A stretch of 64,000 nt of DNA. Source: Alphaproteobacteria bacterium (lineage in GTDB: Bacteria > Pseudomonadota > Alphaproteobacteria > RF32 > CAG-239). The notes beneath the pieces are model-generated. The model had not been told where the DNA came from. It did not search any database and saw only the letters and a program-made list of their open reading frames with translations. The stretch lies in NCBI GenBank assembly GCA_047975765.1, contig JBKEEF010000013.1:67727-131726 (forward strand), given 5' to 3'. The position numbers were made by a program, and so were the translations under genes. Shown one piece after another: positions 4,441 through 53,659 of this stretch; the first letter of the stretch is position 1; each line of letters starts with the position of its first letter.

Positions 4441-6489
4441 ATGTCAGAAATAGAAAATCAAGAATTTTATGACGCGGGCAGTAATGATGCTCCTTTAATC
4501 GATTCATTGGGTGCGAATGTCAAAAGACTCATTGAAAAAGGAAAAGTGCGTGGTTTTATCACAATTGAAGAACTAAACAAAACCTTGCCGTCTGAAAGAG
4601 AAACGTCTGAACAGATTGAAGACATTATATCTGAAATTTCAGATATGGGAATTAGTCTCATCTCCGAGTCTGATGCTGATAATTTTGAAGCAGAAGTGAC
4701 TGAAGAAGATGAAGAAGATGAAAGCGGTAACTTTGATGAAAAAGAACTAGGCCGCACAGACGACCCAGTAAGAATGTATCTGAAAGAAATGGGAACGGTT
4801 GAGCTTCTTTCTCGTGAGGGCGAAATTGCCATTGCTAAAAGAATTGAAGCTGGAAAAACAGTTATGATTGATGGACTTTGCGAAAGTCCAATGACACTTC
4901 GTGCAATCGCTTCATGGAAAAATGATTTAATTGAGGGCAAAGTTCAACTGCGTGATATCGTCGATTTAGAGATGATGTATGGTGCAGATGAAGAAGCTTT
5001 GGTGTATGACGAAGAAGAAAATTCAGTTGATGATTTAGAAAAAGTTGCAGCAGATCTTGAAAAAGAAGATAATCTTGATGAAGATGATGATATCTTGGAT
5101 AACGACATTGAATTAAGTGATGCCGATGAAGAAGATGATGAAGAAGATGAAACTGAAGTAACTGAAACTGAAGGTGAAAGCAGTGAAGATGGTGATGATG
5201 AAAATTCTGGTGCCAGAAATGTTGCTTCAATCTCTTCAATGGAAGAAGCTTTGTTCGAACCTGTTTTGGAAACTTTGAACAATATCGGCGGATATCATGA
5301 TACTTTGAAGAAAATTCAAATCCAAAGACTTGAAGCGCTTATCAAGGGAAAACCAGTTAACGCAGCAACTGAGAAAAAATATTTCCAAGTTAAAAGGGAT
5401 TTGGTAGAACTTTTGAGTTCAATTCACCTTAACTCAAACAGAATTCAACAACTTGTTGAGCAGTTGAATGATATCAATAAACGTTTGATGGGTTTTGAAG
5501 GAAAACTGCTTCGCTATGCAACATCTTGCAAAGTTAAACGTGAAGATTTCTTAGAGACATATCGTAAGTCTGAGTTGGATCCTAATTGGGTAGAAAGTCT
5601 TGCGAAGAAAAAAGATAAACATTGGAATATGTTTGTCGAAAAGCATGGAAAAGAAATTGTAGAACTCAGAGAAAGTATTGCTGAAATGGCATACGAATGT
5701 GGTCTACCAATCAGTGAATATCGCCGTATGGTTGAAACAATCAAAAAAGGTGAAAGAGAAGCTGAGCGTGCTAAAAAAGAAATGATTGAAGCAAACCTTC
5801 GTTTGGTGATTTCAATTGCTAAGAAATATACAAATCGTGGCTTGCAATTCTTAGATTTGATTCAAGAAGGTAATATCGGTTTGATGAAAGCCGTTGATAA
5901 ATTTGAATATCGTCGTGGTTATAAGTTCTCAACTTATGCAACTTGGTGGATTAGACAAGCGATTACTCGTTCAATTGCAGATCAAGCAAGAACAATTCGT
6001 ATCCCTGTCCATATGATTGAAACAATTAATAAACTTGTTAGAACTTCAAGACAAATGCTTTCAGAAATGGGCAGAGAACCAATTCCAGAAGAATTAGCAG
6101 AAAGACTTTCTATGCCTTTGGAAAAAGTTCGTAAAGTTATGAAAATTGCTAAAGAACCAGTGAGTTTGGAAGCACCAGTTGGTGATGAAGAAGATTCTTC
6201 TTTGGGAGATTTTATTGCTGATGAAAGTGCATTACAACCTCTTGATTCTGCAATCCATTCAAACTTGAAAGAAACTTGCACGAAGATTTTATCTTCTCTC
6301 ACGCCAAGAGAAGAAAGAGTGCTTCGTATGAGATTTGGTATTGGTATGAATACAGACCACACTTTGGAAGAAGTTGGACAACAATTTAGTGTGACACGTG
6401 AACGTATTCGTCAGATTGAAGCGAAGGCATTGCGTAAGCTAAAACACCCAAGCCGTTCTCGTAAACTTAGAAGTTTCTTGGATAATTAA
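4441..6489 (+). CDS. rpoD: RNA polymerase sigma-70 factor
   Basis: Region 1.1, a long acidic non-conserved insert, and regions 2-4 ([50 protein letters not shown]; [17 protein letters not shown]). Confidence 0.93.
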
Positions 6490-30037: not shown

Positions 30038-30114
30038 GGGGGTGTAGCTCAGTTGGTTAGAGTGCTTGCCTGTCACGCAAGAAGTCGCGGGTTCGAGCCC
30101 CGTCACTCCCGCCA
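30038..30114 (+). tRNA. tRNA-Asp (anticodon GTC)
   Basis: 77-nt cloverleaf folded by hand: GGGGGTG acceptor stem, anticodon loop CTGTCAC, T-loop TTCGAGC, encoded CCA. Confidence 0.9.
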
Positions 30115-30147: not shown

Positions 30148-31296
30148 TCATTCTGACTTTTTATTTTTCTCATTCTGACTTTTTACATATTCAACTAATT
30201 TATTTGTTGCAGTAAGTCCTATTTTTTCAGTTGGGCTTTTGTATGTGCTATTAAACATTTTTTCGCTTTCGTGACCTGTTATTACGATTGCAGCAGCACT
30301 TGTGACACCAGCTTCTATATATGCAGTGCTTCCAGAATGTCGCATTAGTCTGAAGGTATAGTTAAACCCTAGTTCTTGACAAACATTTCTAAAGTAATCT
30401 TGAAAACGTCTGACTGTGAAATCTCCAAAATCATCACAAATGATGAAATCTTTTTTAGATAATATTTCTCTTTCCAGATGTTTTGGTACAGGAAGAATTA
30501 CTTTCTTGCCTAGTCTTTCCATTTTGTTTTGAATTATGCTAAAGAAATAATGGCCATCTTTTTTGTAAAGGTCATCTTTTCTTAGTTTTAACACATCAGC
30601 TGGCCTTTGAGCAAAATATAAATCAAGTTCAGTTCCTAGCGCTATTGCTCTATATGCTTCCGCTTTGTTTTTATATTTTTCATCTTCAGCCATTTCTTTA
30701 GCTTTATTAATAATTGCATGAACATCTTCAATTGGAATATATAGTTTTTCTGGTTTTTTTCTTCTTATTCTCATATTCTCAAAAGGATTTTTCTTTGAAA
30801 GTCTTTCTTTTCTTAGTCCAAAATTGTATATTAACCTTAGAAAATCCATACAGTTTTTAGCCCATCTTTCTTTTATTTCTTCAACCAGATTTTCATATAG
30901 TTTATATGCGATGTCATAATTGAATAAATCTAAAGGAGTGTCGCTTAACATTACTCCTTTTTTGTTTTTCTTTTTTGAAAGAATTTTATAAGCATTTTCA
31001 TAATCTTTCTTTGTTCTTGCTGCTAAATCTTTGTAAAAACGGCTATCAATATATATTGTCCAGAGATAGGATAGAGATTTATTGATGATTAGATCTTTTT
31101 TGTTTCTAAATTCTTTAATCTCTTTATTTAGTTTTTCAGCTTTTGCGTATGCTTCCCACTTTCCAGAGCCAAGTGGAATTGACTTTCTTATTTCTAAACC
31201 TTCAGGAACAAGGCGAGCAGGCATAACGAAGTAATAAGATATTACTCCGTTAGCAAGTTTCTTTTCTTGAACATATTTAGGTTTATCTCTTTTCAT
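30148..31296 (-). CDS. int: tyrosine-type site-specific integrase
   Basis: 382 aa. The C-terminal catalytic region contains LMRHSGSTAYIEAGV and HESEKMFNSTY (R-H-R-Y type). Confidence 0.9.
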   Translation of the reverse strand: MKRDKPKYVQEKKLANGVISYYFVMPARLVPEGLEIRKSIPLGSGKWEAYAKAEKLNKEIKEFRNKKDLIINKSLSYLWTIYIDSRFYKDLAARTKKDYENAYKILSKKKNKKGVMLSDTPLDLFNYDIAYKLYENLVEEIKERWAKNCMDFLRLIYNFGLRKERLSKKNPFENMRIRRKKPEKLYIPIEDVHAIINKAKEMAEDEKYKNKAEAYRAIALGTELDLYFAQRPADVLKLRKDDLYKKDGHYFFSIIQNKMERLGKKVILPVPKHLEREILSKKDFIICDDFGDFTVRRFQDYFRNVCQELGFNYTFRLMRHSGSTAYIEAGVTSAAAIVITGHESEKMFNSTYKSPTEKIGLTATNKLVEYVKSQNEKNKKSE

Positions 31297-32506: not shown

Positions 32507-33142
32507 TCATGCTACCTCCTTGTTAATTATCTCTAGTATTTCTCGGGCTTTCATCTTTATATCTTCCAACCTAGCGTGAGGGTCACAATTACAATCGCTG
32601 TAAATTTCTATGTCATTTATCCCGTCTTTAGCCTGTTGGAGCTTAGCTTGAAGACTACCAACTTGATTAGATAATCTAAATATAACTTCTGTAGCCGTGT
32701 CGTATTCAAGTTCTTTGGCTTCTAGTTGTTGCTCTTGATTTCTTATAGTTTTTCCAAAATCTATCAATTCTTTTGAATCTCTATTCTGTGTCTGAACAAG
32801 CAATTCAATTTGTGAATTTGCAGTGAGGAGTTGTTCTTCCTTTTTCTCAAATTCTTCACAAAGTCTTGAACGCAGCTCATCAAGAGCCATAAGGTCTTTT
32901 TTGTGATCTTCTGAAAGTTCTCTCTCGGAGTTTTCAAAAACCACTATTCCTTCCATTTCTTCAAGGAAATTTCTTTCTAATATTTCTACAGGAGCTTTCT
33001 TTTCTTCCTTACCAACAAAGAAGTCAAAGTCTTTATTAATTTCTCTTGTACTTTCAGATACGCAATCAGTTATTGTAGCGACACCAACGATACCTCCAAA
33101 ATCTAATTCTTTAGGTAAATCTCTTAATCTTTTAATAGCCAT
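32507..33142 (-). CDS. hypothetical coiled-coil phage protein
   Basis: 211 aa with a heptad-rich middle region. Confidence 0.4.
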   Translation of the reverse strand: MAIKRLRDLPKELDFGGIVGVATITDCVSESTREINKDFDFFVGKEEKKAPVEILERNFLEEMEGIVVFENSERELSEDHKKDLMALDELRSRLCEEFEKKEEQLLTANSQIELLVQTQNRDSKELIDFGKTIRNQEQQLEAKELEYDTATEVIFRLSNQVGSLQAKLQQAKDGINDIEIYSDCNCDPHARLEDIKMKAREILEIINKEVA

Positions 33143-33178
33143 AATTACTCTCCTAAAACTGCTTTAATTTTATTAACC

Positions 33179-33631
33179 CTAAGAGCCAGAGCCATCGCCA
33201 AAGCCATCGCCAAAGCCAGAGCCATCGCCAAAGCCATCGCCAAAGCCAGAGCCAGAGCCAAAGCCAGAGCCATCGCCAAAGCCATCGCCAAAGCCAGAGC
33301 CAGAGCCAAAGCCAGAGCCAGAGCCAAAGCCATTGCCATCGCCATTGCCATAGCCATCGCCAGAGCCATTGCCAGAGCCATTGCCATCGCCAAAGCCAGA
33401 GCCAGAGCCAAAGCCAAAGCCAGAGCCAGAGCCAGAGCCATTGCCATTGCCAAAGCCAGAGCCAGAGCCAAAGCCATCGCCAGAGCCATTGCCATTGCCA
33501 GAGCCATTGCCATTGCCAAAGCCAGAGCCAGAGCCAAAGCCATCGCCAGAGCCATTGCCATTGCCAAAGCCAGAGCCAGAGCCAAAGCCATCGCCAGAGC
33601 CAAGACCTAGATATTCATCTTCTTTATTCAT
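33179..33631 (-). CDS. glycine-rich (GSG/GNG/GDG/GFG) low-complexity protein
   Basis: ATG with an AAGGA RBS. 150 aa, almost entirely G-x repeats, encoded by a hexanucleotide repeat. An alternative MALAMAL frame (33145-33603) is also open but lacks an RBS. Confidence 0.4.
33180..33600. repeat. hexanucleotide-based tandem repeat (GCCAAA/GCCAGA/GCCATC/GCCATT units), about 420 bp
   Basis: Direct inspection. Three of the six frames are open across it. Confidence 0.85.
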
Positions 33632-34139
33632 AGGAAATCCTTCTTAAAATATCTGAACCATAATTATTTTTACAAATTTCTAAAAACTCCAAAGGTGTGA
33701 ACCCTTTTTGTAAGTCAATACTTTTATTTTTTACAAAATTTTCTCTTCCTTGTTCGCATGAACCAGTTAAGATAAAATGCCAATTGAAGAAATCTTGACC
33801 TTTATATTTCTTGTTTTTTTTGAAAATATTTTTGAATTCTTTTATCTTTTCATCTATATGCATATTTGCAAAAAATTTTGCCATTGCACTATCTGATGAT
33901 TCTTTTATAGTTTTCCCGTGTGCAGTAAACCCATTAAAACTTGATACAAAACATTCTTCTGTTGTCATATTGTCGTTTAGGATAAATCCTTTTATAATAC
34001 CCTTTTTTATAGATTTTATAAGTGTTGGGACTTTATCTATATAAATAACCTCCATACCAAAAATCTTTTTAAATATTGGTTTTGTATTATTTGGATTTCC
34101 ATTATATTTGAAATCAATTGCCATGTTTAAGCTCTCCAC
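33624..34139 (-). CDS. hypothetical phage protein
   Basis: 171-aa ORF. Confidence 0.4.
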
Positions 34140-34477
34140 TCTGGGACGTTATCTATATTTGCTTGAGCTTCTTTTGTTACTGGGAGCACCTCTATAACGT
34201 TAGGTAGATATATCCCTCCTTCATCTTTTATGGTGACACAAAACTTACAATTTGAAGGGCTTTTAGTTCCGTAAACTGCTAATTCAGAAAGGCTCGCAGC
34301 TCCAGACCAATACCATATACGACGTGCATTTTGTAATATACATTCTCCTTTTTCTAGTTGTTTGATATTGCCATACCAAACACCAGCAGAATATGTTCTT
34401 ATAATGTATTTTTTTGTAGAATTTGTTTCAGTCATTGTTATTTTCCTTAAAAAAATTAGAATATTTTTCTGAACCAT
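34127..34477 (-). CDS. hypothetical phage protein
   Basis: 116-aa ORF. Confidence 0.35.
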   Translation of the reverse strand: MVQKNILIFLRKITMTETNSTKKYIIRTYSAGVWYGNIKQLEKGECILQNARRIWYWSGAASLSELAVYGTKSPSNCKFCVTIKDEGGIYLPNVIEVLPVTKEAQANIDNVPEWRA

Positions 34478-35762
34478 ATTGACCTTTAGTCAATTCGATT
34501 ACGATTGCAGGTGTAATCTCCTTTAGAGATTTTATTTTTTCTGAATTATTACTACAGAAGTTCTTTATTCCAAATTCGCAAGCACCAGTTATAATTCTAT
34601 AACTTTCAATCGCATCTTTTAGAGATATCTTTGTCTTGAGATTCCATTTTTTGAATTTACTAGTATCTTTTGAAGATATCTTGTAAATCAAACTTTCTTT
34701 TGCTTGCTTGATTGTTTCGCCGTGGGAATAAACATTTCCATCAGTGACGATGTAAGTTAATTTTCCTCTAACTTTAACCTTCATAGCATTTTTAAGCTGC
34801 TTAACGACTTCGCAGAAAATTCCATCAATTTTACGGTATTTTCCATTTTGCCAAGAAAATTCAATATTGATTGTTATGCTTGCTCTTATTCTTGAAGATA
34901 TATTGTATGTAGGTTTATTTACTTTAACTTTTTTATGTAGATCACTTCTGAGGTCTAGATAACCACCAACAGTTGGATTAAATCCCTCTGGAATTGATGT
35001 CAAACTACTGAGGTCTAGATAACCACCAACAGTTGGATTAAATCCCTCTGGAATTGATGTCAAACTTCTGAGGTATAGAGAACCGCCAACAGTTGGATTA
35101 AATCCCTCTGGAATTGATGTCAAACTTCTGAGGTCTAGATAATCACCAACAGTTGGATTAAATCCCTCTGGAATTGATGTCAAACTACTGAGGTCTAGAG
35201 AACCGCCAACAGTTGGATTAAATCCCTCTGGAATTGATGTCAAACTACTGAGGTCTAGAGAACCGCCAACAGTTGGATTAAATCCCTCTGGAATTGATGT
35301 CAAACTTCTGAGGTATAGAGAACCGCCAACAGTTGGATTAAATCCCTCTGGAATTGATGTCAAACTACCGAGGTATAGAGAACCGCCAACAGTTGGATTA
35401 AATCCCTCTGGAATTGATGTCAAACTTCTGAGGTATAGAGAACCGCCAACAGTTGGATTAAATCCCTCTGGAATTGATGTCAAACTTCTGAGGTCTAGAG
35501 AACCGCCAACAGTTGGATTAAATCCCTCTGGAATTGATGTCAAACTACTGAGGTCTAGAGAACCGCCAACAGTTGGATTAAATCCCTCTGGAATTGATGT
35601 CAAACTACCGAGGTATAGAGAACCGCCAACAGTTGGATTAAATCCCTCTGGAATTGATGTCAAACTACTGAGGTCTAGAGAACCGCCAACAGTTTCTTTA
35701 CCGAAAAATTGGTCTTCCGTTAAATTGTATTTTTTACAAAAATTTTGCTGTTCTTTATTCAT
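34428..35762 (-). CDS. tandem-repeat protein with 12.5 x 20-aa LRR-like repeats (..SL[D/Y]L[S/R/G]SLTSIPEGFNPTVGG..)
   Basis: A 60-bp near-perfect DNA repeat array translates into 20-aa units. The C-terminal 180 aa is non-repetitive. Confidence 0.6.
   Translation of the reverse strand: MNKEQQNFCKKYNLTEDQFFGKETVGGSLDLSSLTSIPEGFNPTVGGSLYLGSLTSIPEGFNPTVGGSLDLSSLTSIPEGFNPTVGGSLDLRSLTSIPEGFNPTVGGSLYLRSLTSIPEGFNPTVGGSLYLGSLTSIPEGFNPTVGGSLYLRSLTSIPEGFNPTVGGSLDLSSLTSIPEGFNPTVGGSLDLSSLTSIPEGFNPTVGDYLDLRSLTSIPEGFNPTVGGSLYLRSLTSIPEGFNPTVGGYLDLSSLTSIPEGFNPTVGGYLDLRSDLHKKVKVNKPTYNISSRIRASITINIEFSWQNGKYRKIDGIFCEVVKQLKNAMKVKVRGKLTYIVTDGNVYSHGETIKQAKESLIYKISSKDTSKFKKWNLKTKISLKDAIESYRIITGACEFGIKNFCSNNSEKIKSLKEITPAIVIELTKGQYGSEKYSNFFKENNND
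34941..35700. repeat. 60-bp tandem repeat array, about 12.5 copies, coding
   Basis: Units such as AATCCCTCTGGAATTGATGTCAAACTTCTGAGGTATAGAGAACCGCCAACAGTTGGATTA differ at only a few positions. Confidence 0.9.
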
Positions 35763-35829
35763 TGATTTTATATCCTTTTATTGTTTGTAATTTGTGAGCC
35801 TTTTCTCAACTTGCTTAGGTTGGTTGTAA

Positions 35830-36897
35830 CTAAACTTCTGTAATCCTTACACCTCGATTTTGGTTTTCAGCAAAAAGTAAAATGTTGCCGATATGTCCAG
35901 CCCTAGCGTTAGCTCTAACTTCCGACAATATTGTTTCGTAGCTGACAATCTGATTCGACACCCCTTTTAGGATTCGGCAGAATATTTCTACGCTTTTAGT
36001 TCTCTCGATTTTATCAAAAGACTTAATGAAATAGTTCAAACAGTCCACCACTTCATAAGGTTTTAACATTGTACGAGTTAGTAAGAATTCCATGTCATTT
36101 AGGAACTCGAAACGATCGACACTTGTGTTTTTTGCTATAGTTGGGAGTTTTTCATCTAAAGCATGGTTTACAACTGATTTAATTATACCGCCGATTTCTT
36201 GTCTGGCTTTGGATGATAAAACAATCTCACGCTTGCTACTTGGCTTTTTACGTAAGTGCGTAGAGACTTTAACTAGGTCATTGCTTGTAGAATAAGAGCC
36301 TGTTTTACGAATACTAGGGAGTACTTCTTCACATACCCAATCAGTAAATGCCTCAGCCTCTGGTTTTCGGCTTTGAAAAGCAACTTTATAAACGTTCTTC
36401 TCGTTTATAAATGAAACTGATTGAGTTCTACCTAAGTTGTCGATGGTGTCCACAGTACGGACGCCATCTTTTAAACGGGCAATAACATTGCGATTGTTTT
36501 TGATTGATAAAGCTTCACACACATCCACACCGCAAAAGTATGGTTCGTTGTTAACTAGCTCAGCTCTTACTTGATTGTTTTTGAAATTAAATATAGTTAA
36601 TGAATTTGTCATTTTGTATACTCCTTGAATGATTAGGAGCAGTCCGAAACGACATTTTTCTAAGAATGGCGTCCCGAAGTTAGAAAACCCGTATTCAAGG
36701 AAACGAGCAACATAGCCTTTAGCTTTCGCTTGGACATAGCTAAGTTCTTCGGGACATAAAAAATTCGCCATATAATTAACGATTGGCGATTGTCCGCCTT
36801 GAATAAAGGAGTTTCTACGCTCCATTACAGCATTTACTGTAACAACTCCATTGTATCTATATTTAGAATCTATTGTCAACATATTTTTATTTCTCAT
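35830..36897 (-). CDS. Bro-N domain protein (putative antirepressor) with N-terminal extension
   Basis: The central FNFKNNQVRAELVNNEPYFCGVDVCEALSIKN...KPEAEAFTDWVCEEVLPSIRKTG matches the Bro-N consensus. A possible internal start is MTNSL. Confidence 0.7.
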   Translation of the reverse strand: MRNKNMLTIDSKYRYNGVVTVNAVMERRNSFIQGGQSPIVNYMANFLCPEELSYVQAKAKGYVARFLEYGFSNFGTPFLEKCRFGLLLIIQGVYKMTNSLTIFNFKNNQVRAELVNNEPYFCGVDVCEALSIKNNRNVIARLKDGVRTVDTIDNLGRTQSVSFINEKNVYKVAFQSRKPEAEAFTDWVCEEVLPSIRKTGSYSTSNDLVKVSTHLRKKPSSKREIVLSSKARQEIGGIIKSVVNHALDEKLPTIAKNTSVDRFEFLNDMEFLLTRTMLKPYEVVDCLNYFIKSFDKIERTKSVEIFCRILKGVSNQIVSYETILSEVRANARAGHIGNILLFAENQNRGVRITEV

Positions 36898-37002
36898 TTT
36901 TATTAAGTTGTTAAGAGTTAGTACGTTTTAGTTTATTATTTAGAATGGGATATCATCATCAAAATTGTTATCCATTTGCTCGGGTGGTCTTGGGGCATTT
37001 CG

Positions 37003-37863
37003 TTATGCGAGAGGGTCTACATCTCCTTCAATTACTTCTCCCGTCTCAGCATTAAAGTTTTCTTCAATTTGTTTTTGATGTTGATTTGTAGTTTCCTCAA
37101 AGTCGGCGTCAATGTAATTAGGTTCGCCTTTGTCGTTCAAGACAGCCATGTCGTTCTCGTAGGCTTTTTGCATATCAACGGACATGATTCCCCATTTACT
37201 GATGAGCTGACGAAGCATTGTTTTGAACGCCATTCCGTCAAAGTCCTTTTCCCAAAAAGTGTAGCCTTTCTTTGCTTTGTAACCCATCGAGTATTTAAGG
37301 GCATGAGCTTCCATTTTTGCTTTAGACCAGTACATAGTCTTTCTAAACCCATTCATGTACTCAAACATTGCATAGTAGCCAATTGTAGTAGCATTTTCTC
37401 TTGCTTCTTCATCATCAATGAGCTTGACTTCAATTTCTTCGTTGAGAGGATCATACTTAATTAGTTCACCCTCTTTGATAGCGATAACGTTCAGTTTTTT
37501 GTATTGTCCTGAGCGGATAGCAAGCTGAATATATCCCTTGTATCCAAGTTGGAATTGAGCCACTGTGCGACCAAGTTTGTTGTCTTTGAATGGCACAAAA
37601 TAATATTGACCGAGCTGAGGGCTTGGAGATAGCTTCAAAGCTTCCCCGAGCATTGCTGCCGACAAAACTGTTCCGTGGTCACATTCTGCAATAGCAGGGT
37701 TTGTGCTGACTGCAGAAATTACAGATGTAATAAAACGTTGTCCGTCTTTTCCTCCAATCACTTCATTGATTTTAGCTTTCACTCCTTCTCCCGTTAAAAA
37801 AGTGCTGAAAGTTGCTTTTTTTTGGACTAAAGAATTTTTGTTTTGATTTGCTACCGTGTTCAT
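37003..37863 (-). CDS. recT: RecT family single-strand annealing recombinase
   Basis: 286 aa. RecT-like core GQYYFVPFKDNKLGRTVAQFQLGYKGYIQLAIRSGQY. Confidence 0.85.
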   Translation of the reverse strand: MNTVANQNKNSLVQKKATFSTFLTGEGVKAKINEVIGGKDGQRFITSVISAVSTNPAIAECDHGTVLSAAMLGEALKLSPSPQLGQYYFVPFKDNKLGRTVAQFQLGYKGYIQLAIRSGQYKKLNVIAIKEGELIKYDPLNEEIEVKLIDDEEARENATTIGYYAMFEYMNGFRKTMYWSKAKMEAHALKYSMGYKAKKGYTFWEKDFDGMAFKTMLRQLISKWGIMSVDMQKAYENDMAVLNDKGEPNYIDADFEETTNQHQKQIEENFNAETGEVIEGDVDPLA

Positions 37864-38696
37864 TATTTTACGCTCCCGTATTTAATGTTGTTTTTTGTTA
37901 AAAATTCTTTCAAATCTTGTTTTTGTTTTTCACTTACCCAAACACGAAAATCAATTTGTTGTAGACTTTCAGGTTGTTCTGCCTGTTTAATTGGTGTTTG
38001 GATAAAATCTGTTTTTGCTTCAACAGCTGGTTGTGGTGTTAAAGCTATTTTGCTTTCTTCATAAGCTTTGAGCTTTGCTCTCTGTTCTTCAAGCCTATTT
38101 TTTTCTTGAAGTGCAGCTGAAAGGTCAAAATTCTTTAGGTAAAAATCTTTAATTTGTGACTCAAATTCTGATTTCAAATCAGTGATAACCTTTAGGTCTT
38201 TCTCTGTTCTTTCAATAAATTCATTTATTTCATCATTAACAGATGCAATCTTGACAGTGGCATTAAGCCATTTTTCATTAAAGATTGTTTCAAATTGTAT
38301 TAACTCTTTAAGTCCACCAGAAAAGTTATCCCAAAACTCATGAATTTGAGCCTTTTTTTCTTCTTTTTGGGAGTTTTCAAAATTTTTTACTTGCGTATCA
38401 ATCGCAAGAATTGGTTCATCAATCATTGAAACAATTTCTTTGATGTCTTTTTCAAAAGCTTCATAAGGCTCTAAGCATTTTTTCTTAATTTCTTTTCTTT
38501 TTTCTTCAATTGCAGCCTTAAACTTATTAAGAGTAGCTCTATCTGATTTGGCATCTTTAATTTCATTTTCGCTATAAGTTAGACCTTTATATTTTTCCAA
38601 ACTTGCAGATAGTTCCTTCTTGATTTCTTCTTTGTTAAACTCAATAGATTTCAAAAAGCCTTTATCTTCTGTTGGATTGAGGATTATTATTTCCAT
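37863..38696 (-). CDS. coiled-coil K/E-rich phage protein (between RecT and exonuclease; DUF1351-like position)
   Basis: 277 aa, largely heptad repeats. Confidence 0.4.
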   Translation of the reverse strand: MEIIILNPTEDKGFLKSIEFNKEEIKKELSASLEKYKGLTYSENEIKDAKSDRATLNKFKAAIEEKRKEIKKKCLEPYEAFEKDIKEIVSMIDEPILAIDTQVKNFENSQKEEKKAQIHEFWDNFSGGLKELIQFETIFNEKWLNATVKIASVNDEINEFIERTEKDLKVITDLKSEFESQIKDFYLKNFDLSAALQEKNRLEEQRAKLKAYEESKIALTPQPAVEAKTDFIQTPIKQAEQPESLQQIDFRVWVSEKQKQDLKEFLTKNNIKYGSVK

Positions 38697-38709: not shown

Positions 38710-39378
38710 TTAAATTTGCGGTAACACTAGGTTTGGTTTAATGTCTTTGGCGACATATTGTTGCCAAAATTTGATTTCTTCTTTTTGCAAGAACTCAATA
38801 TCATCTTGGATATTCTCGCGTTTGAAGAAATAGTGGCGTTGAGTTATACGGATTTGTCCGTCGTAAATGCTCTTTAGTTGAGCTTTAAGGATAGCGAAGT
38901 CATAACCTGTTACGCCGAGATAGTGCAAAATCTGACAGTAGTAATTTTGAGGAATCCTGTCGTTCCATTTTTCAAGCTGCATAGATTGCAAAATGTTAGT
39001 GGTCTTGATCTCTAAGATTCCTTTTCTCCCTGTTGATTTTTCAGTCAACTCACCATCAAGAGATGCTGAAAGAAAATCAAACCTTGGGTGTCTGATAATA
39101 TCAAACCCTTTTTCAACTACTTCGTATTCTGGATAATCCAACTTAAAGAGTTCTCTCAATGGGTTCTCAGCCTTAACGCCATATTGAACACAATCTTTGT
39201 TTGAGATGTCGGCTTGTTCTTTACGGCCTGTTTTGATTTCCCAAAGTTGAACATTGGTCATATATGGATTGCAGCCTACTATTGCTGCAGCATCTGAACC
39301 ACCGATGCCTTTTTTTCTTTCTTCAAGCCACTGTTCACGAGTTACTTCCATCACTCTAATCCTTTTCTTTTTCTTCAA
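38710..39378 (-). CDS. YqaJ-like viral recombinase-domain exonuclease (PD-(D/E)xK)
   Basis: GIGGSDAAAIVGCNPYMTNVQLWEIKTG...LEIKTT matches the YqaJ/lambda-exonuclease family. Paired with RecT. Confidence 0.8.
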   Translation of the reverse strand: MKKKKRIRVMEVTREQWLEERKKGIGGSDAAAIVGCNPYMTNVQLWEIKTGRKEQADISNKDCVQYGVKAENPLRELFKLDYPEYEVVEKGFDIIRHPRFDFLSASLDGELTEKSTGRKGILEIKTTNILQSMQLEKWNDRIPQNYYCQILHYLGVTGYDFAILKAQLKSIYDGQIRITQRHYFFKRENIQDDIEFLQKEEIKFWQQYVAKDIKPNLVLPQI

Positions 39379-40929: not shown

Positions 40930-41607
40930 CTATAACTCTTTCATTTTGATTTGGTAATCAATCACCACAGCAGCGATATCATATTCTTTGTCGTCGGGGT
41001 GGAGAATGATATTGTTTATTGTTGGGTTGGTCGATTCGGCAACCAGAACAATTGTGTTGTTATCTGTTTTCATATATCTTTTGACAGTAGCTTCATATAG
41101 TCCGTCAGAGCTTTTTCGATATGCAATGATGTAGTCGCCATTTTCAATCTTGCCGTCATAATCATCTATGCAACAACATATAAGCGTTGTTTTTTCTGGC
41201 GGAAAGATTTTATTCATCGAATCGCCACGAACTCCTAGAGCGAAAATTCTTTTGTTTTTGAGGTTATCATTAACAGGATAATATACTTCTTCCCATTCAT
41301 CTTCAGGGAGTTGCGTCGCTTCATTCCATGCACCAGCTTGAACAAAACCGATTTTTGAAATTGTTGTTATTTGATTATTATTTTCATAGTCTAATTCTTT
41401 GGTAACACCTGATATATATTTTGTAAAGTTTTCTAAATTTATGTCTAAAAATTTAGCAAAAGAAACGATTTCTTTTTGCTGAATTTCCCTAATACCTTTA
41501 ATTATAGCACTTAAATGGGGTGGGGCAATGTTAACATAATTAGCTAATTCTTTTTGTGTTTTTCCAAGATCTTTCAATCTATCTTTTATAAACTCATATT
41601 TTGTCAT
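40930..41607 (-). CDS. cI: CI-like repressor (HTH_XRE plus S24 LexA-like peptidase)
   Basis: N-terminal HTH (KTQKELANYVNIAPPHLSAIIKG). C-terminal S24 with ALGVRGDSM and a Lys further downstream. Confidence 0.85.
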   Translation of the reverse strand: MTKYEFIKDRLKDLGKTQKELANYVNIAPPHLSAIIKGIREIQQKEIVSFAKFLDINLENFTKYISGVTKELDYENNNQITTISKIGFVQAGAWNEATQLPEDEWEEVYYPVNDNLKNKRIFALGVRGDSMNKIFPPEKTTLICCCIDDYDGKIENGDYIIAYRKSSDGLYEATVKRYMKTDNNTIVLVAESTNPTINNIILHPDDKEYDIAAVVIDYQIKMKEL

Positions 41608-49473: not shown

Positions 49474-49549
49474 TGCGAGATGGAGAAGATGTTATCTCGT
49501 TCCGCTCATAACGGAAAAATCGTAGGTTCAAATCCTACTCTCGCAACCA
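49474..49549 (+). tRNA. phage-encoded tRNA with CAT anticodon (Met or Ile2)
   Basis: Manual cloverleaf: acceptor TGCGAGA/TCTCGCA, D-stem GAGA/TCTC, anticodon stem TTCCG/CGGAA with loop CTCATAA, T-arm GTAGG-TTCAAAT-CCTAC, discriminator A, encoded CCA. Only position 19 is atypical. Confidence 0.6.
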
Positions 49550-50177: not shown

Positions 50178-51713
50178 ATGAATCCATTGTTGCTAGGTTC
50201 TTTCCTACTTAGTCAGCCATTTGAGATTTGGCTCAGATTCTTGTTTAAGAAAGTGGAAAGTCGTCCTTTTGTTGTTGAAAATGTACATAGGAGTATTTTT
50301 GAAACCTATGAAAACATTTTCAACATGAATGAAGATTACACATTCACAAATTTAAATCTTCCGCCCAGGTCTGGAAAAACTATTATTGCTGAATATTTTC
50401 TTATTTATTGTCTTCTAAAGGCTGCAATAAATAAAAAGGGAACAAATTGGATATATATATCATATTCAATTAAACTTTTGAAAGAAGTATCATCTGGTAT
50501 TAAAAATATTGTAGAATCACAGATATTTAAATTATTGTATGGAGATCAGTATTTCAATATTCATCAATCTGATATTGAATTTACAGATGATGCTTTCGAA
50601 GATTACTATAAATCAATTGGTGAAAGTAAAGAAGTTATTAAATTTTCATCAACAGATATTACGCTTGGTAGAAGCAGAATTGTTCTTTCTCCTCTTGGTG
50701 GGCAAATCACAGGATTTGGTGCTGGTGTTCGTGGTGGAGAAGACTATGTTAGCGGTGGTATATTCTTAGATGATATTAATAAAATTCAAGATACTGTACG
50801 GTCAGAACTTTTAAGAGAAAAAACAAGACAATATTTTTCAGGTGTTATTTTCTCAAGAAGAAACAATCCAAAAGTTTTAATTATGAACATTCAGCAACGT
50901 GTTCATATTGAAGATATGACGGGATATTTAGAAGATACATACAACTTCAAGACAATCAAAGCTCCTTTGATTGGGGAAACAGGAATATGTCAAATTCCAA
51001 GTCAGTATGACCAAAGAACTATAGATATGCTTAAAAAGGATAATTTTACTTTTCAGGCTCAATATCAACAAGATCCAATTCTCGAAGGTGGATATCTTAT
51101 TAAAACAGATTTTATTAAAAGATTTGAAGAACCTTTGGTGACCTATAAACAAATGTTTATTGTTTGCGATACAGCTTTTAGCGAGAAGAAGTCATCAGAT
51201 TTTTCCGTCTTTGGGTTGTTTGGAATAGATGAAAAAAATAATATTTGGCTTGTTGAAGGTTATTGTAAGAGAGTTTCATTTCCAGACTTGAAACGAGACT
51301 TAAGGAGTTTTTACCTTTCTGCAGTATATAAATTTGGTAAATATAACAATATAAGCACAATATATGTTGAAAATAAAGGCTCTGGAATAAGCTTAATTCA
51401 ACAGTTGAGGGAAGATGGACTACCAATAAAAGAGCTATCACCAACATATTATAATGCTGAGTTTAAGAAAGAAGAAGTTTCTGATAAATATACTAGGTTC
51501 TTAGAAATATCCGCTGACATAGAAAGCGGATATTTTTATATGCCTAGAGAAGCTCATTTTTTAATGGAACTTATTCGCCAATGTGAATCTTTTACAGGTG
51601 GTAAACAATCCTATCATGACGATTGGGTTGATGTGCTTATATATGCTTTAAAAATTAGAAGAAAAAATATTCAAGATATTGATTGGCAAAATTTCGGGAA
51701 CATATTTAGATGA
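50178..51713 (+). CDS. terL: terminase large subunit
   Basis: Walker A PPRSGKT. C-terminal RNaseH-like nuclease with CDTAFSEKKSSDFSVFGLFG. Confidence 0.88.
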   Translation: MNPLLLGSFLLSQPFEIWLRFLFKKVESRPFVVENVHRSIFETYENIFNMNEDYTFTNLNLPPRSGKTIIAEYFLIYCLLKAAINKKGTNWIYISYSIKLLKEVSSGIKNIVESQIFKLLYGDQYFNIHQSDIEFTDDAFEDYYKSIGESKEVIKFSSTDITLGRSRIVLSPLGGQITGFGAGVRGGEDYVSGGIFLDDINKIQDTVRSELLREKTRQYFSGVIFSRRNNPKVLIMNIQQRVHIEDMTGYLEDTYNFKTIKAPLIGETGICQIPSQYDQRTIDMLKKDNFTFQAQYQQDPILEGGYLIKTDFIKRFEEPLVTYKQMFIVCDTAFSEKKSSDFSVFGLFGIDEKNNIWLVEGYCKRVSFPDLKRDLRSFYLSAVYKFGKYNNISTIYVENKGSGISLIQQLREDGLPIKELSPTYYNAEFKKEEVSDKYTRFLEISADIESGYFYMPREAHFLMELIRQCESFTGGKQSYHDDWVDVLIYALKIRRKNIQDIDWQNFGNIFR

Positions 51714-53659
51714 ATTTAGTAAATAAGATATTTGGAAAAAATAACAATAAGAATAAAGATAAAATACAAAATGATTGGATAGGTTTCAATTTTTCTCTAA
51801 AATCTTTGGAAGATAAAGATAAAATTGTAGAAATAGTTGAACCAAAAACATTAGCAAATATGCGTCTTGAAGGTAATGCTAATGATTATGGTTCAGGAAA
51901 GGGAATAAAATTATATAATTCTCATAAGCTTAAGATGGATAATCAGTGGGTTAATCCTTTTAGTTCTGTAAACACTGGGTATGGAACTGCCCATCTTTCA
52001 TTATATATGTATCAACCAGTTAATTATTACCAATGTGCTGTTATGGCACAAGATCCACTTTTTGCAAGGCTATTTAGTATTTTATCTGATGAACCCCTTG
52101 CTAAAGGCGGAGAAATAAGAACAAAGGATACAAAAGAAGATAAATTTTTTGATGAAATTGATGTCTTGGTAACAAGATATAAAATTATTGAGACTGTTAA
52201 ATTAGCTCTTAAAAAATCTTATAGCTTAGGTGGTTGTCTGGTTTTAAAAGATTGCGGGTCCAACAATCTAGAGTTACCATTTAGAAAATCAGATTATAAA
52301 AAATTCAAGGGATTTAGAATTATTGAACCTATGAATTGTACAGCTGTTGATGTTAATACTACAGAACCTGCAAAAGAAAATTATATGGACCCAGATAAGT
52401 GGTATATTATTGGTTTAGGAGTCGTCCATAAAAGCCATGTTATTAAATTTTCATTAAATGAACCTGAAGAATTTCTTAAGCCTATTTGTATGTATTTGGG
52501 AATGCCTTTAACGCAAATATTAAAGCAAGATGTAGCAAATTCAAATCTAGCTTCTCAAGGTCTCGCAAATATGATGAACAGATTTAGAAATATATATCTC
52601 AAAGTTGACGATACAAATTTTACTGGATCTGGAGCTTCTAATTTTAGATCGAGACTTGAAGCTATGGGGATATTACAAGATAATTTTAATGTCACTCCTC
52701 TTAAAAAAGATGAAGATGTTGTTCAACTTGTATCATCAATAGCTGGAATGAATGAATCTGTTGAGCTTTTCTATCAAATTGTAGCTTCAAAATCAGGTGT
52801 TCACTTCTCAAAATTATTCAAAACATCTCAAGGTTTAAATAATGATGGAGAAGGTGACAGAACAAATCATTATGATAACCTTAAAGCAGTTCAATCATAT
52901 CTTTCTCCAAAAATGGTTGAGATGTATAATATTATTGGAAAAATATATACTCAAGATGATGATTTTGAATTTATAGCTTATGATTTTAATGAGCTTGAAA
53001 TTCCTACACCAAAAGAGAAAGCGGATCTAATTAAAGCACATATTGAAGCAGGAAAAAATCTAACAGAAATGGGGGCTAAACGTGAACAGGTCTTTGAATG
53101 GATAAAAAGAAATAAAGAATTTGATTTAGAAGATATTGAACTTGATTTAGAAACAGATTTTCTTGATGAATATGAAGAAAAAGAAGTTAGTGTTCATAAT
53201 GAAAAATTTATTGAAAGTGATCATACAAGAGATGAAGATGGAAAATTTACAAGCACTGGTTATTCTCGTGATACATCAGAATATTTATCCAAAGAAACCA
53301 AAGATTTTTTGGGCGAAAAATTTGAAGGATTTAAAGGAAGAGATGCTATTGATAAATTGATGGGAGAAAAAAGAGGATATGTTCCTAATGCATTTAGCCG
53401 TAAAGATATTGGAGATGTTTCTTTAATATGGGGTGATGATGAAATGGGATTGCAACATATTATTAAAAGAAGAAAAGAAACAAACCAGCCCATTGGAAGA
53501 CTTTTCGAATCATTAACAGAAGTTATTGAGAAAGGAAATATTTCAGAAGGCAAGAAAGGAAGATTTGAAATAAACTATAAAGGCAAGTTAGCAATTATTG
53601 AGCCCAAACTTTACAATGAAACGATAAATTTTCTTTTTACTGCTTATTACGAAAGATAA
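51710..53659 (+). CDS. portal protein with C-terminal extra domain
   Basis: 649 aa between terL and MuF, with an ATGA overlap onto terL. An acidic linker at about residues 465-495 is followed by a C-terminal module of about 150 aa. Confidence 0.65.
   Translation: MNLVNKIFGKNNNKNKDKIQNDWIGFNFSLKSLEDKDKIVEIVEPKTLANMRLEGNANDYGSGKGIKLYNSHKLKMDNQWVNPFSSVNTGYGTAHLSLYMYQPVNYYQCAVMAQDPLFARLFSILSDEPLAKGGEIRTKDTKEDKFFDEIDVLVTRYKIIETVKLALKKSYSLGGCLVLKDCGSNNLELPFRKSDYKKFKGFRIIEPMNCTAVDVNTTEPAKENYMDPDKWYIIGLGVVHKSHVIKFSLNEPEEFLKPICMYLGMPLTQILKQDVANSNLASQGLANMMNRFRNIYLKVDDTNFTGSGASNFRSRLEAMGILQDNFNVTPLKKDEDVVQLVSSIAGMNESVELFYQIVASKSGVHFSKLFKTSQGLNNDGEGDRTNHYDNLKAVQSYLSPKMVEMYNIIGKIYTQDDDFEFIAYDFNELEIPTPKEKADLIKAHIEAGKNLTEMGAKREQVFEWIKRNKEFDLEDIELDLETDFLDEYEEKEVSVHNEKFIESDHTRDEDGKFTSTGYSRDTSEYLSKETKDFLGEKFEGFKGRDAIDKLMGEKRGYVPNAFSRKDIGDVSLIWGDDEMGLQHIIKRRKETNQPIGRLFESLTEVIEKGNISEGKKGRFEINYKGKLAIIEPKLYNETINFLFTAYYER

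Follow-up and report, generated by a model that had tools for sequence, protein, structure and literature searches.

A prophage gene of near-identical 60-bp repeats encodes a predicted leucine-rich-repeat-type solenoid joined to a conserved C-terminal domain

Introduction

In fungal NLRs, such as the products of the Podospora HNWD, het-d and het-e genes, the WD, ANK and TPR repeats within a gene are near-identical, evolve in concert and are polymorphic in number (PMC1805685, PMC4986451). Positive diversifying selection in these repeats acts on three to five positions, which map to the binding surface (PMC1805685, PMC4986451). Repeat mining has revealed hypervariable leucine-rich repeat (LRR) proteins in Flavobacterium psychrophilum, where they are exposed at the surface, and in Dictyostelium purpureum, where they are of the IP22 type (PMC10392669). 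Here, we analyzed a phage gene with a comparable repeat organization, which belongs to a family not described in the latter study (PMC10392669). The gene was found in a 64,000-nucleotide (nt) stretch of an alphaproteobacterial assembly (GCA_047975765.1, contig JBKEEF010000013.1, positions 67,727 to 131,726, forward strand), referred to below as the window. It occupies positions 34428..35762 on the minus strand of the window and encodes a protein of 444 amino acids (aa), in which 12 nearly identical 20-residue units are followed by a conserved C-terminal domain (C-domain).

Results

A tandem array of 60-bp units within a single reading frame

At this locus, Tandem Repeats Finder detected a single array, 34944..35694, with a period of 60, 12.5 copies, 96% matches and no indels. 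The 444-aa open reading frame (ORF) was the sole ORF of at least 40 aa crossing the array, and an AAGGA ribosome-binding site is located 8 nt upstream of its ATG. Its parts are as follows.

34428..35762, minus strand: whole coding sequence, 444 aa, with leader/cap, 12.3 LRR-type units, linker and C-terminal domain; homologues share both termini
35688..35762, minus strand: N-terminal leader/cap MNKEQQNFCKKYNLTEDQFFGKETV, residues 1-25, with two short helices predicted
34968..35687, minus strand: 12 full 60-nt (20-aa) units, residues 26-265, in the unit register GGSLDLSSLTSIPEGFNPTV
34944..34967, minus strand: partial thirteenth unit GGYLDLRS, 8 residues, at the C-terminal end of the solenoid
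34863..34943, minus strand: linker, residues 274-300, with a predicted local distance difference test score (pLDDT) of <50 at residues 284-299 of the model
34431..34862, minus strand: conserved C-terminal domain, residues 301-444, predicted to form a five-strand sheet and then a helical bundle

The original prediction of 12.5 near-identical coding repeats of 60 bp, about 95% identical in DNA, was borne out by the array and by mean pairwise unit identities of 96.4% (DNA) and 91.6% (protein). Its location, 34428-35762, is that of the repeat protein's ORF, the array itself spanning only 34944..35694. The 12 full units follow the formula GG-x3-L-x5-L-x7-S-LTSIPEGFNPTV. The final 36 nt of each full unit, the core TTGACATCAATTCCAGAGGGATTTAATCCAACTGTT, are present in 12 copies with 0 mismatches (shuffles expect 0), and a search of the whole window found no copy of this core outside the array. 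Only six DNA columns of the unit vary (3, 5, 8, 13, 19 and 21), and the 12 full units represent only six distinct unit sequences. One of the changes is synonymous (GGC/GGT in codon 1). Amino acid differences were found at four unit positions, not at the two to which variation had been thought to be limited: position 2 (G/D, in one unit only), position 3 (S/Y, with units 10 and 12 and partial unit 13 differing), position 5 (D/Y) and position 7 (S/R/G). From unit 1 to unit 12, the x3x5x7 triplets read SDS, SYG, SDS, SDR, SYR, SYG, SYR, SDS, SDS, YDR, SYR and YDS.

Relationship of the units to bacterial LRRs

When the family profile was searched against PDB sequences, it matched the LRR of SspH1 (E=2.6e-6 and 1.5e-5) and, more weakly, IpaH7.8, IpaH9.8 and SspH2, but nothing besides. 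The IpaH/SspH alignment was confined to the LRR part of these proteins (query profile 31-186). The homologue P0058 (55% identity, E=6e-110) is composed of 22-residue units, GGSLYLNNNQLTSLPDGFNPTV, which contain the canonical LxLxxNxLxxLP motif. P0058 scored above the Pfam cutoffs for LRR_4 (50.4 bits versus 27), LRR_8 and LRR_1, and against NCBIfam it matched SlrP at 8e-23, with the SlrP and SspH2 models at ~1e-22. For P0182, the LRR_4 score was just under the cutoff (25.0 versus 27) and the LRR_1 score just over it (21.6 versus 20.6).

An AlphaFold2 model of the window protein, built with a 121-sequence alignment, had a mean pLDDT of 91.5 for the whole protein. Residues 1-270 had pLDDT values of 92-98 (near 97 across the repeats), and the repeats were predicted as a solenoid with one turn per unit, in which two 2-residue strands per 20 residues (EE---EE) recurred with strict periodicity. 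Residues 284-299 were disordered, and the C-domain was a confident five-strand sheet with a helical bundle. The repeats had been proposed to resemble LRRs, with structure prediction as a check for a solenoid; both the SspH1/IpaH profile matches and the 22-residue relative above the Pfam LRR cutoffs agree with this proposal, and the repeats were modeled as a confident solenoid, not as a disordered region. The window unit, (G)xxLxLxx-LxxIP, has kept the two core leucines and the following L..IP. Because of the profile matches to SspH1 and IpaH, the 22-residue units of P0058 and the best fold match in the PDB, the 20-residue unit appears to be a divergent LRR of the short bacterial IpaH/SspH/YopM class, in which the "Nx" of LxLxxNxL would have been lost.

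The leader has the family consensus FCKK..(I/L)TEDQF.GKE, in which F8, T15, Q18, F19 and G21 are nearly invariant. No hydrophobic segment was found in the window protein (Kyte-Doolittle maximum of 0.50 over 19 residues), from which a soluble, cytoplasmic protein is predicted. The architecture of leader, repeats and ~145-aa domain includes no NTPase (NOD/STAND) domain.

Variation is concentrated at three positions of the unit

The variable residues correspond, in LRR numbering, to x3, x5 and x7, through which the LRR strand classically contacts its ligand. Since they alternate with the core leucines, positions 3, 5 and 7 of the phage unit should all face one way. Position statistics were obtained from 966 units of the best 120 relatives. 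Entropy was 2.5-3.1 bits at positions 3, 5 and 7 and at most 1.6 bits at every other position, and the core residues L4, L6, P13, F16, N17 and P18 were nearly invariant (≤0.3 bits). The residues at positions 3, 5 and 7 were mostly S, Y, D, N, G, R and W; at position 5, Y was counted 354 times, D 333, N 82 and H 20 times. A binding role, one of the functions first suggested for the protein, fits this pattern in that the variable positions are the x residues of xLxLxx, the classical ligand face of LRRs. In total, 401 distinct x3x5x7x8 combinations were present among the 966 units, with the ten commonest making up ~21%. A small code like that of transcription activator-like effectors (TALEs) was rejected on this count.

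The arrays were internally homogeneous at the DNA level: 42 of 77 arrays from independent contigs were at least 90% identical within themselves. Outside codons 3, 5 and 7 (51 nt), identity was 97.1% within an array versus 70.4% between the consensus units of different arrays, and these consensus units encode almost the same peptide despite their 70.4% DNA identity. Thus, concerted evolution or repeated recent expansion has occurred in many lineages, and the expectation of recent expansion or ongoing recombination held at the family level, where it also agrees with the occurrence of 18, 8 and 6 units between identical flanks described below. In the 42 homogenized arrays, codons 3, 5 and 7 carried 148 nonsynonymous and 4 synonymous variants, compared to 60 and 73 in the other 17 codons (Fisher p=1e-25), these being simple variant counts and not estimates from a recombination-aware codon model. 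A G/T toggle that gives D/Y at position 5 was found in 32 of the 42 arrays. Diversifying selection at positions 3, 5 and 7, with scaffold codons homogenized by recombination, would be the best-supported reading of this variation.

Base changes in the variable columns included G/T, A/C, A/G and A/T and were thus not adenine-specific. Since, in addition, a template copy was absent from the window, a diversity-generating retroelement with its A-to-N spectrum was rejected as the source of the variation; no exhaustive reverse transcriptase scan of the window was made.

Differences in repeat number

Arrays in the family had up to 18 units, and at the other extreme the C-domain occurred alone, with 0 units. 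L051, L086 and L077, viral contigs of different metagenomic origin, carry 18, 8 and 6 units, respectively. On either side of their arrays they are 100% identical, across 600 nt of upstream sequence and across 1220 nt that include the C-domain and the region after it. Their unit orders, ABCDEFGHIAJKLGHAMN (L051), EFGHIAMN (L086) and ABCDEO (L077), differ by in-register deletions between like units. These differences fit unequal recombination but are suggestive only, since collapse during short-read assembly would yield the same pattern.

The C-terminal domain and its partners

In the 121-sequence alignment, D313, H347, R389, T392 and C395 of the C-domain were invariant. Three of these residues and a second, repeat-less copy of the domain are located in the window as follows.

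34824..34826, minus strand: D313, conserved C-domain residue
34722..34724, minus strand: H347, in (S/A)HG, where the last strand ends
34578..34580, minus strand: C395, in the motif ITGAC, in the turn preceding a helix
33624..34139, minus strand: repeat-less C-domain paralogue, 171 aa (BLASTP E=3e-8), which keeps AHG and TGSC

Among 288 distinct sequences, the His was present in 285 of 286 and the Cys in 279 of 288, with Ser replacing Cys in 8 of the 9 exceptions. As a guess from this conservation, the C-domain might contain a Cys/His(/Asp) catalytic or metal site. No significant match to the domain was obtained in Pfam, NCBIfam, PADLOC, PHROGs, PDB sequences or PDB folds (for its profile against the PDB, nothing was better than E=0.48), and in BFVD it matched only uncharacterized phage proteins of the same family. 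One BFVD relative is automatically named "Lamprin," which may reflect fusion of the C-domain, elsewhere, to Gly-rich repeats resembling those of the glycine-rich ORF described below.

The paralogue lies two genes downstream of the repeat gene in the same operon. Like the conserved C-terminal domain itself, it had been overlooked when an anti-defense decoy was put forward as one function of the repeat protein; the presence of this domain makes a pure decoy less likely.

A search of 1.84 billion representatives (50% identity) with the C-domain profile retrieved 1754 matches at E≤1e-3 and 1192 at E≤1e-10, and in all 150 of the 150 best matches the domain was at the C terminus. Of 140 C-domain representatives, 20 had an N-terminal extension of <45 residues, and the remainder had internally repetitive, solenoid-like N termini with dominant periods of 20 and of 8/16/24 residues. 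The repeat types in the N-terminal parts were as follows.

PxGFxP type: 20-mers
LPxxLxVGG type: 20-22-mers, some above LRR model cutoffs
...TxxGGx(V/L)x(V/I/L)x... type: 18-20-mers, e.g., LTSIGGSVYIRE and LQTVGGWLYIYA
TGxxSTVT type: 8-residue units that match T4 gp5 beta-helix, ice-binding-like or hexapeptide models

In the examples of this wider class that were read, variation again fell at alternating strand positions. With such varied solenoid N termini joined to the same C-domain, the window gene looks like one member of a modular family that combines a variable solenoid with a constant C-domain.

Occurrence of the family

At E≤1e-3, the window protein had 1232 relatives among clusters at 90% identity. 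Every listed relative with a source name was called hypothetical, and the 14 relatives that were read (14/14) consisted of leader, n 20-residue units and C-domain. In species-representative genomes, 39 loci were found, distributed over Planctomycetota, Bacteroidota, Deferribacteraceae, Alphaproteobacteria, Clostridia, Elusimicrobiales, Saccharibacteria, Zixibacteria and others, and in IMG/VR 136 viral contigs carried the family. Single copies were present in jumbo-phage-sized viral contigs of 364 kb and 430 kb, and the 195-kb contig IMGVR_UViG_3300028361_000012 had two (L063 and L089), with C-domain regions ~90% identical. Two arrays, of 5 and 7 units, were also seen at one locus of a Taibaiella metagenome-assembled genome (MAG; L006). 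Among cultured phages, Tetrasphaera phage TJE1 (NC_019930, L044) encodes a complete 245-aa member (5698..6435, plus strand, GTG start) with three full 20-residue units and a partial one before the C-domain. In the GenBank annotation of TJE1 (L044 5628..6435), this member is cut to orf51 (132 aa), and a spurious antisense orf50 is placed over the repeats. In Riemerella phages CRP5 and CRP6, the C-domain follows BspA-type repeats and is annotated as "ribonuclease inhibitor."

Assemblers break off within the array, and many family matches therefore mark one end, or both ends, of a contig. Viral or MAG contigs with family genes at both ends, as expected from circular genomes cut in the array, were represented by L069/L108, L095/L126, L083/L088, L023/L034 and L026/L037, and runs of N were present within the arrays of L041 and L007. 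Short-read assemblies systematically break or collapse genes of this family. The window prophage has only one other assembly (Logan, from the short-read run SRR30067233), which ends after the first 32 codons of the gene. The exact window protein was absent from a collection of 15 billion proteins, megablast of 33000..37000 against the phage collection gave no match, and exact 30-mer and 36-mer searches of metagenome and viral contigs returned nothing. In the collections searched, no close relative of the window phage was found, the best in IMG/VR being 47% identical in the C-domain. In the searchable literature, we found no paper on the family, the motif PEGFNPT or the C-domain, and searches of the literature on phage LRRs and anti-defense yielded nothing on the family.

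Genomic context

The gene is part of a prophage in an alphaproteobacterial MAG of ~33% GC, which is integrated at a tRNA-Asp gene beside a tyrosine integrase gene. The features of this region are as follows.

30038..30114, plus strand: tRNA-Asp, prophage end
30148..31296, minus strand: tyrosine integrase, prophage end
34127..34477, minus strand: DUF6948 gene (E=2.5e-24), between the two C-domain genes, with overlaps of 50 nt and 13 nt
35830..36897, minus strand: Bro-N anti-repressor-like gene, upstream in the same operon
37003..37863, minus strand: RecT gene, upstream in the same operon
37863..38696, minus strand: DUF1351 gene, upstream in the same operon
38710..39378, minus strand: YqaJ exonuclease gene, upstream in the same operon
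40930..41607, minus strand: HTH_3/Peptidase_S24 CI-like repressor gene, head of the leftward gene string

The leftward order is CI-like repressor, DUF2335, YqaJ, DUF1351, RecT, Bro-N, repeat gene, DUF6948, paralogue and a glycine-rich ORF; between the latter and the integrase gene are several short ORFs without matches. Since it overlaps both neighbors, the DUF6948 gene is probably translationally coupled to both C-domain genes. DUF6948 was not a neighbor of family members elsewhere, and no paper mentioning it was found in the searchable literature. The glycine-rich low-complexity ORF (150 aa, 33179..33631, minus strand) lies on a degenerate tandem array with periods of 12, 18, 30, 48 and 66 nt (33182..33603); its start overlaps the stop of the paralogue, and two further frames of its array are also open. 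Elsewhere in the prophage, a tRNA-Met gene (49474..49549, plus strand) is located just upstream of the terminase region, and the portal protein (51710..53659, plus strand) has a C-terminal PBECR1 domain, a phage Barnase-EndoU-ColicinE5/D-RelE-like nuclease domain (E=3.6e-9).

Neighbors of the relatives included ERF, SSB and NinG at one locus, YqaJ and an S24 repressor at another, a helicase-methylase at a third, ERF and an exonuclease in TJE1, and ERF and a replicative helicase in a Riemerella phage. Tblastn of the window neighbors against 47 loci revealed no conserved neighbor gene, and in all-against-all clustering of 894 neighbor ORFs from 74 loci the largest cluster comprised only 6 loci. 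As no individual neighbor is conserved, the family gene behaves like a self-standing module, one gene in size, of the early, DNA-metabolism region. The view that it is an unusual gene for a phage early operon did not hold: the family comprises >1200 protein clusters and is typically found in early, recombination or replication regions of temperate and jumbo-sized phages.

Discussion

A proposed recognition module with a constant partner domain

We tentatively favor the interpretation that the repeat protein is a cytoplasmic recognition module whose contacts are under diversifying selection and which is coupled to a constant domain, likely acting against a fast-evolving host protein in counter-defense or takeover. 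Its N-terminal module would be a 12-turn solenoid in which unit positions 3, 5 and 7 line up into one uninterrupted recognition surface, particular to each phage. The constant ~145-aa C-domain would supply a common activity, either catalysis on the target captured by the LRR face or tethering of this target. Unit shuffling and gene conversion would keep the scaffold codons identical and diversifying selection would alter the contact residues only, a pattern that may be read as the signature of an arms-race interface. In lambda-like phages, the early DNA-metabolism region holds host-takeover and anti-nuclease genes. The repeat protein would be made from an operon carrying recombination genes, which we take to be early, and its ligand would be a fast-evolving host protein, most probably a defense protein or another host-takeover target.

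Several observations weigh against this interpretation. At the level of the repeats, the window protein reached no Pfam LRR model even at E≤10, the window unit lacks the LRR Asn/Cys position and one further residue, and the best PDB fold match of the model, to the SspH1 LRR, was weak (Foldseek E=0.011, large root mean square deviation). The exposure of positions 3, 5 and 7 is deduced from their alternation with the core leucines, and the contigs that differ in copy number (L051, L086 and L077) are short-read metagenome assemblies in which repeat collapse is possible. The C-domain has no recognizable fold or family, so that its effector role is an assumption, and its His, Cys and Asp could be structural residues or metal ligands. 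The promoter and terminator scan of the locus gave nothing above chance, and the genomic context does not discriminate counter-defense from defense.

A bolder extension of the same interpretation, which we consider rather unlikely, is that phages carry recognition proteins which can be rapidly reprogrammed and which mirror host immune receptors on the viral side; each new solenoid face would retarget a putative Cys/His enzyme domain onto fast-evolving host defense proteins. Shuffling of the 60-bp units may in this case be driven by the phage's RecT- or ERF-type recombinase, a gene for which was located near the family gene in several examined loci. The same constant domain would be joined to many solenoids of 8-, 18-, 20- and 22-residue units, and the window gene would be one of a broad undescribed class of phage "binder-effector" proteins.

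Alternative explanations

The main rival, which we regard as unlikely, is a prophage defense or superinfection-exclusion sensor. The LRR face would detect an invading phage protein, much as the LRR, TPR and WD sensors of NLR/STAND immune proteins do, and the C-domain would be the effector, being toxic or causing abortive infection. In prophages, the region between integrase and recombination genes is a frequent site of exclusion genes, and the repeat gene is located there, on the same strand as the CI-like repressor gene. Hypervariable, internally conserved repeats are, moreover, a hallmark of immune receptors (PMC1805685, PMC4986451). However, the protein has no NTPase or switch domain, neither it nor the paralogue had a match in PADLOC at E≤0.1, and the C-domain also exists free-standing, without any sensor part. 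Furthermore, relatives lie within strings of early lytic genes (ERF, SSB, NinG and helicase), and the family is present in viral contigs of jumbo-phage size (195-430 kb).

A modular nucleic-acid binder that recognizes one nucleotide per unit, similar to TALE, PUF or PPR proteins, and acts with the single-strand annealing machinery appears improbable. Near-identical repeats with two to three variable residues per unit, a position 5 that toggles between D and Y in 32 of 42 arrays, and RecT, ERF, SSB and exonucleases as neighbors would suit such a function, and a similar idea has been raised for the D. purpureum LRRs with their Y/D/H/N hypervariable residues (PMC10392669). Yet the 401 x3x5x7x8 combinations in 966 units leave no room for a small code, aspartate-rich faces repel phosphate, the searches matched no family or fold that binds DNA or RNA, and no specific recombination gene is conserved as a neighbor.

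More improbable still is a virion adhesin or decoration protein, in which the solenoid would attach to mucus or to polysaccharide at the surface, with the C-domain as its anchor on capsid or tail. Beta-solenoids with regular faces often bind glycans, and some family members match T4 gp5 C-terminal, ice-binding-like and hexapeptide repeat models; among the examined loci, however, the gene was never in a structural module but with early and DNA-metabolism genes instead.

We give very little credence to an IpaH/SspH-like effector against a eukaryotic host of the low-GC alphaproteobacterium, comparable to the eukaryotic association module of phage WO. The repeats have their closest solved relatives among LRRs of type III effector E3 ligases, the prophage lies in an alphaproteobacterial MAG with ~33% GC, and one BFVD relative is automatically named "E3 ubiquitin-protein ligase." Against this, there is no NEL domain, IpaH and SspH align in the LRR part only, and no secretion signal was apparent (no N-terminal hydrophobic segment; no search was made for secretion systems). 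In addition, family members were found in phages of Planctomycetota, Bacteroidota, Clostridia, Actinobacteria (TJE1) and numerous environmental phyla, the majority of which lack a eukaryotic host. Finally, a neutral or selfish minisatellite or a retroelement target, with variable positions of no adaptive meaning, is barely credible: slippage alone can expand tandem 60-bp units, but frame, 60-nt unit length and peptide are conserved over >1200 clusters, the changes are not adenine-specific, no template copy exists elsewhere in the window, and the almost purely nonsynonymous variation at three fixed codons already contradicts it.

Implications

If the favored interpretation is right, the gene stands for a widespread unnamed class of phage proteins, with 1754 C-domain representative clusters across many bacterial phyla and phage genome sizes. 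The class would offer a direct handle on host proteins that phages must recognize in a lineage-specific manner, would extend the list of phage effectors by a new conserved domain that has a candidate Cys/His site, and would provide a compact natural 20-residue LRR scaffold for binder engineering. In practical terms, reference annotations of such genes can be wrong, as for TJE1 orf50 and orf51, and short-read assemblies break or collapse them.

Comparison with known systems

With the LRRs of IpaH, SspH, SlrP and YopM ("LPX," 20-22 residues), the phage repeats share a 20-residue unit and an LTS(L/I)P core, and in both cases a recognition LRR is followed by a Cys-containing C-terminal domain. In contrast to these proteins, the phage unit is two residues shorter, LxLxx[Nx]L, and is missing the LRR asparagine. 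The NEL E3 ligases have a NEL of ~300 aa with a catalytic Cys in CxD, whereas the phage C-domain is ~145 aa long, has ITGAC and an unrelated predicted fold; from these features, the window protein does not appear to be a NEL ligase. Also unlike the IpaH/SspH class, it is encoded by a phage and lacks a secretion signal, and its family extends to phages of bacteria without a eukaryotic host.

The F. psychrophilum and D. purpureum LRRs are likewise solenoids with few hypervariable positions and variable repeat number, and in D. purpureum the hypervariable residues are mainly Y, D, H and N, as at phage position 5 (PMC10392669). They differ in being secreted or exposed at the cell surface (by the type IX secretion system) or eukaryotic, in their unit sequences, and in having no counterpart of the C-domain. 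Membership of the phage repeats in FNIP/IP22 was considered and rejected, as no Pfam FNIP match was listed in our scans or in the precomputed Pfam families of the relatives. Lamprey variable lymphocyte receptors (VLRs) and engineered LRR binders resemble the phage family in placing diversity at the x of xLxLxx, on one face rich in Y, S, D, N, G and R. VLRs, however, are assembled somatically from flanking cassettes; no donor cassettes were found in the phage window, and phage diversity lies between phage lineages and between units. TAL effectors share tandem near-identical units with two or three variable residues, and their arrays, too, break short-read assemblers, but they have a helical fold and a small residue-to-base code, unlike the predicted beta-solenoid of the phage repeats and its 401 combinations.

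In mode of evolution, the internally conserved WD, ANK and TPR repeats of fungal NLRs appear to be the closest analogue. The within-gene repeat identity of at least 85% that characterizes them is also found here (96.4% in DNA and 91.6% in protein for the window gene), units are more alike within a gene than between genes, and contact positions are variable. The repeat types differ, however, and no LRRs were found in fungal NLRs by those authors (PMC1805685, PMC4986451). The phage protein is, moreover, viral, has a shorter, 20-aa unit and lacks both a NOD/STAND NTPase and an N-terminal death or effector domain. Recognition by hypervariable repeats is thus already known, and what is new is such a protein in a viral and probably cytoplasmic setting with a new partner domain. 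If this interpretation is true, phages share an evolutionary trick with plant resistance proteins, lamprey VLRs and fungal NLRs: on an identical repeat scaffold, recombination renews the hypervariable contact residues.

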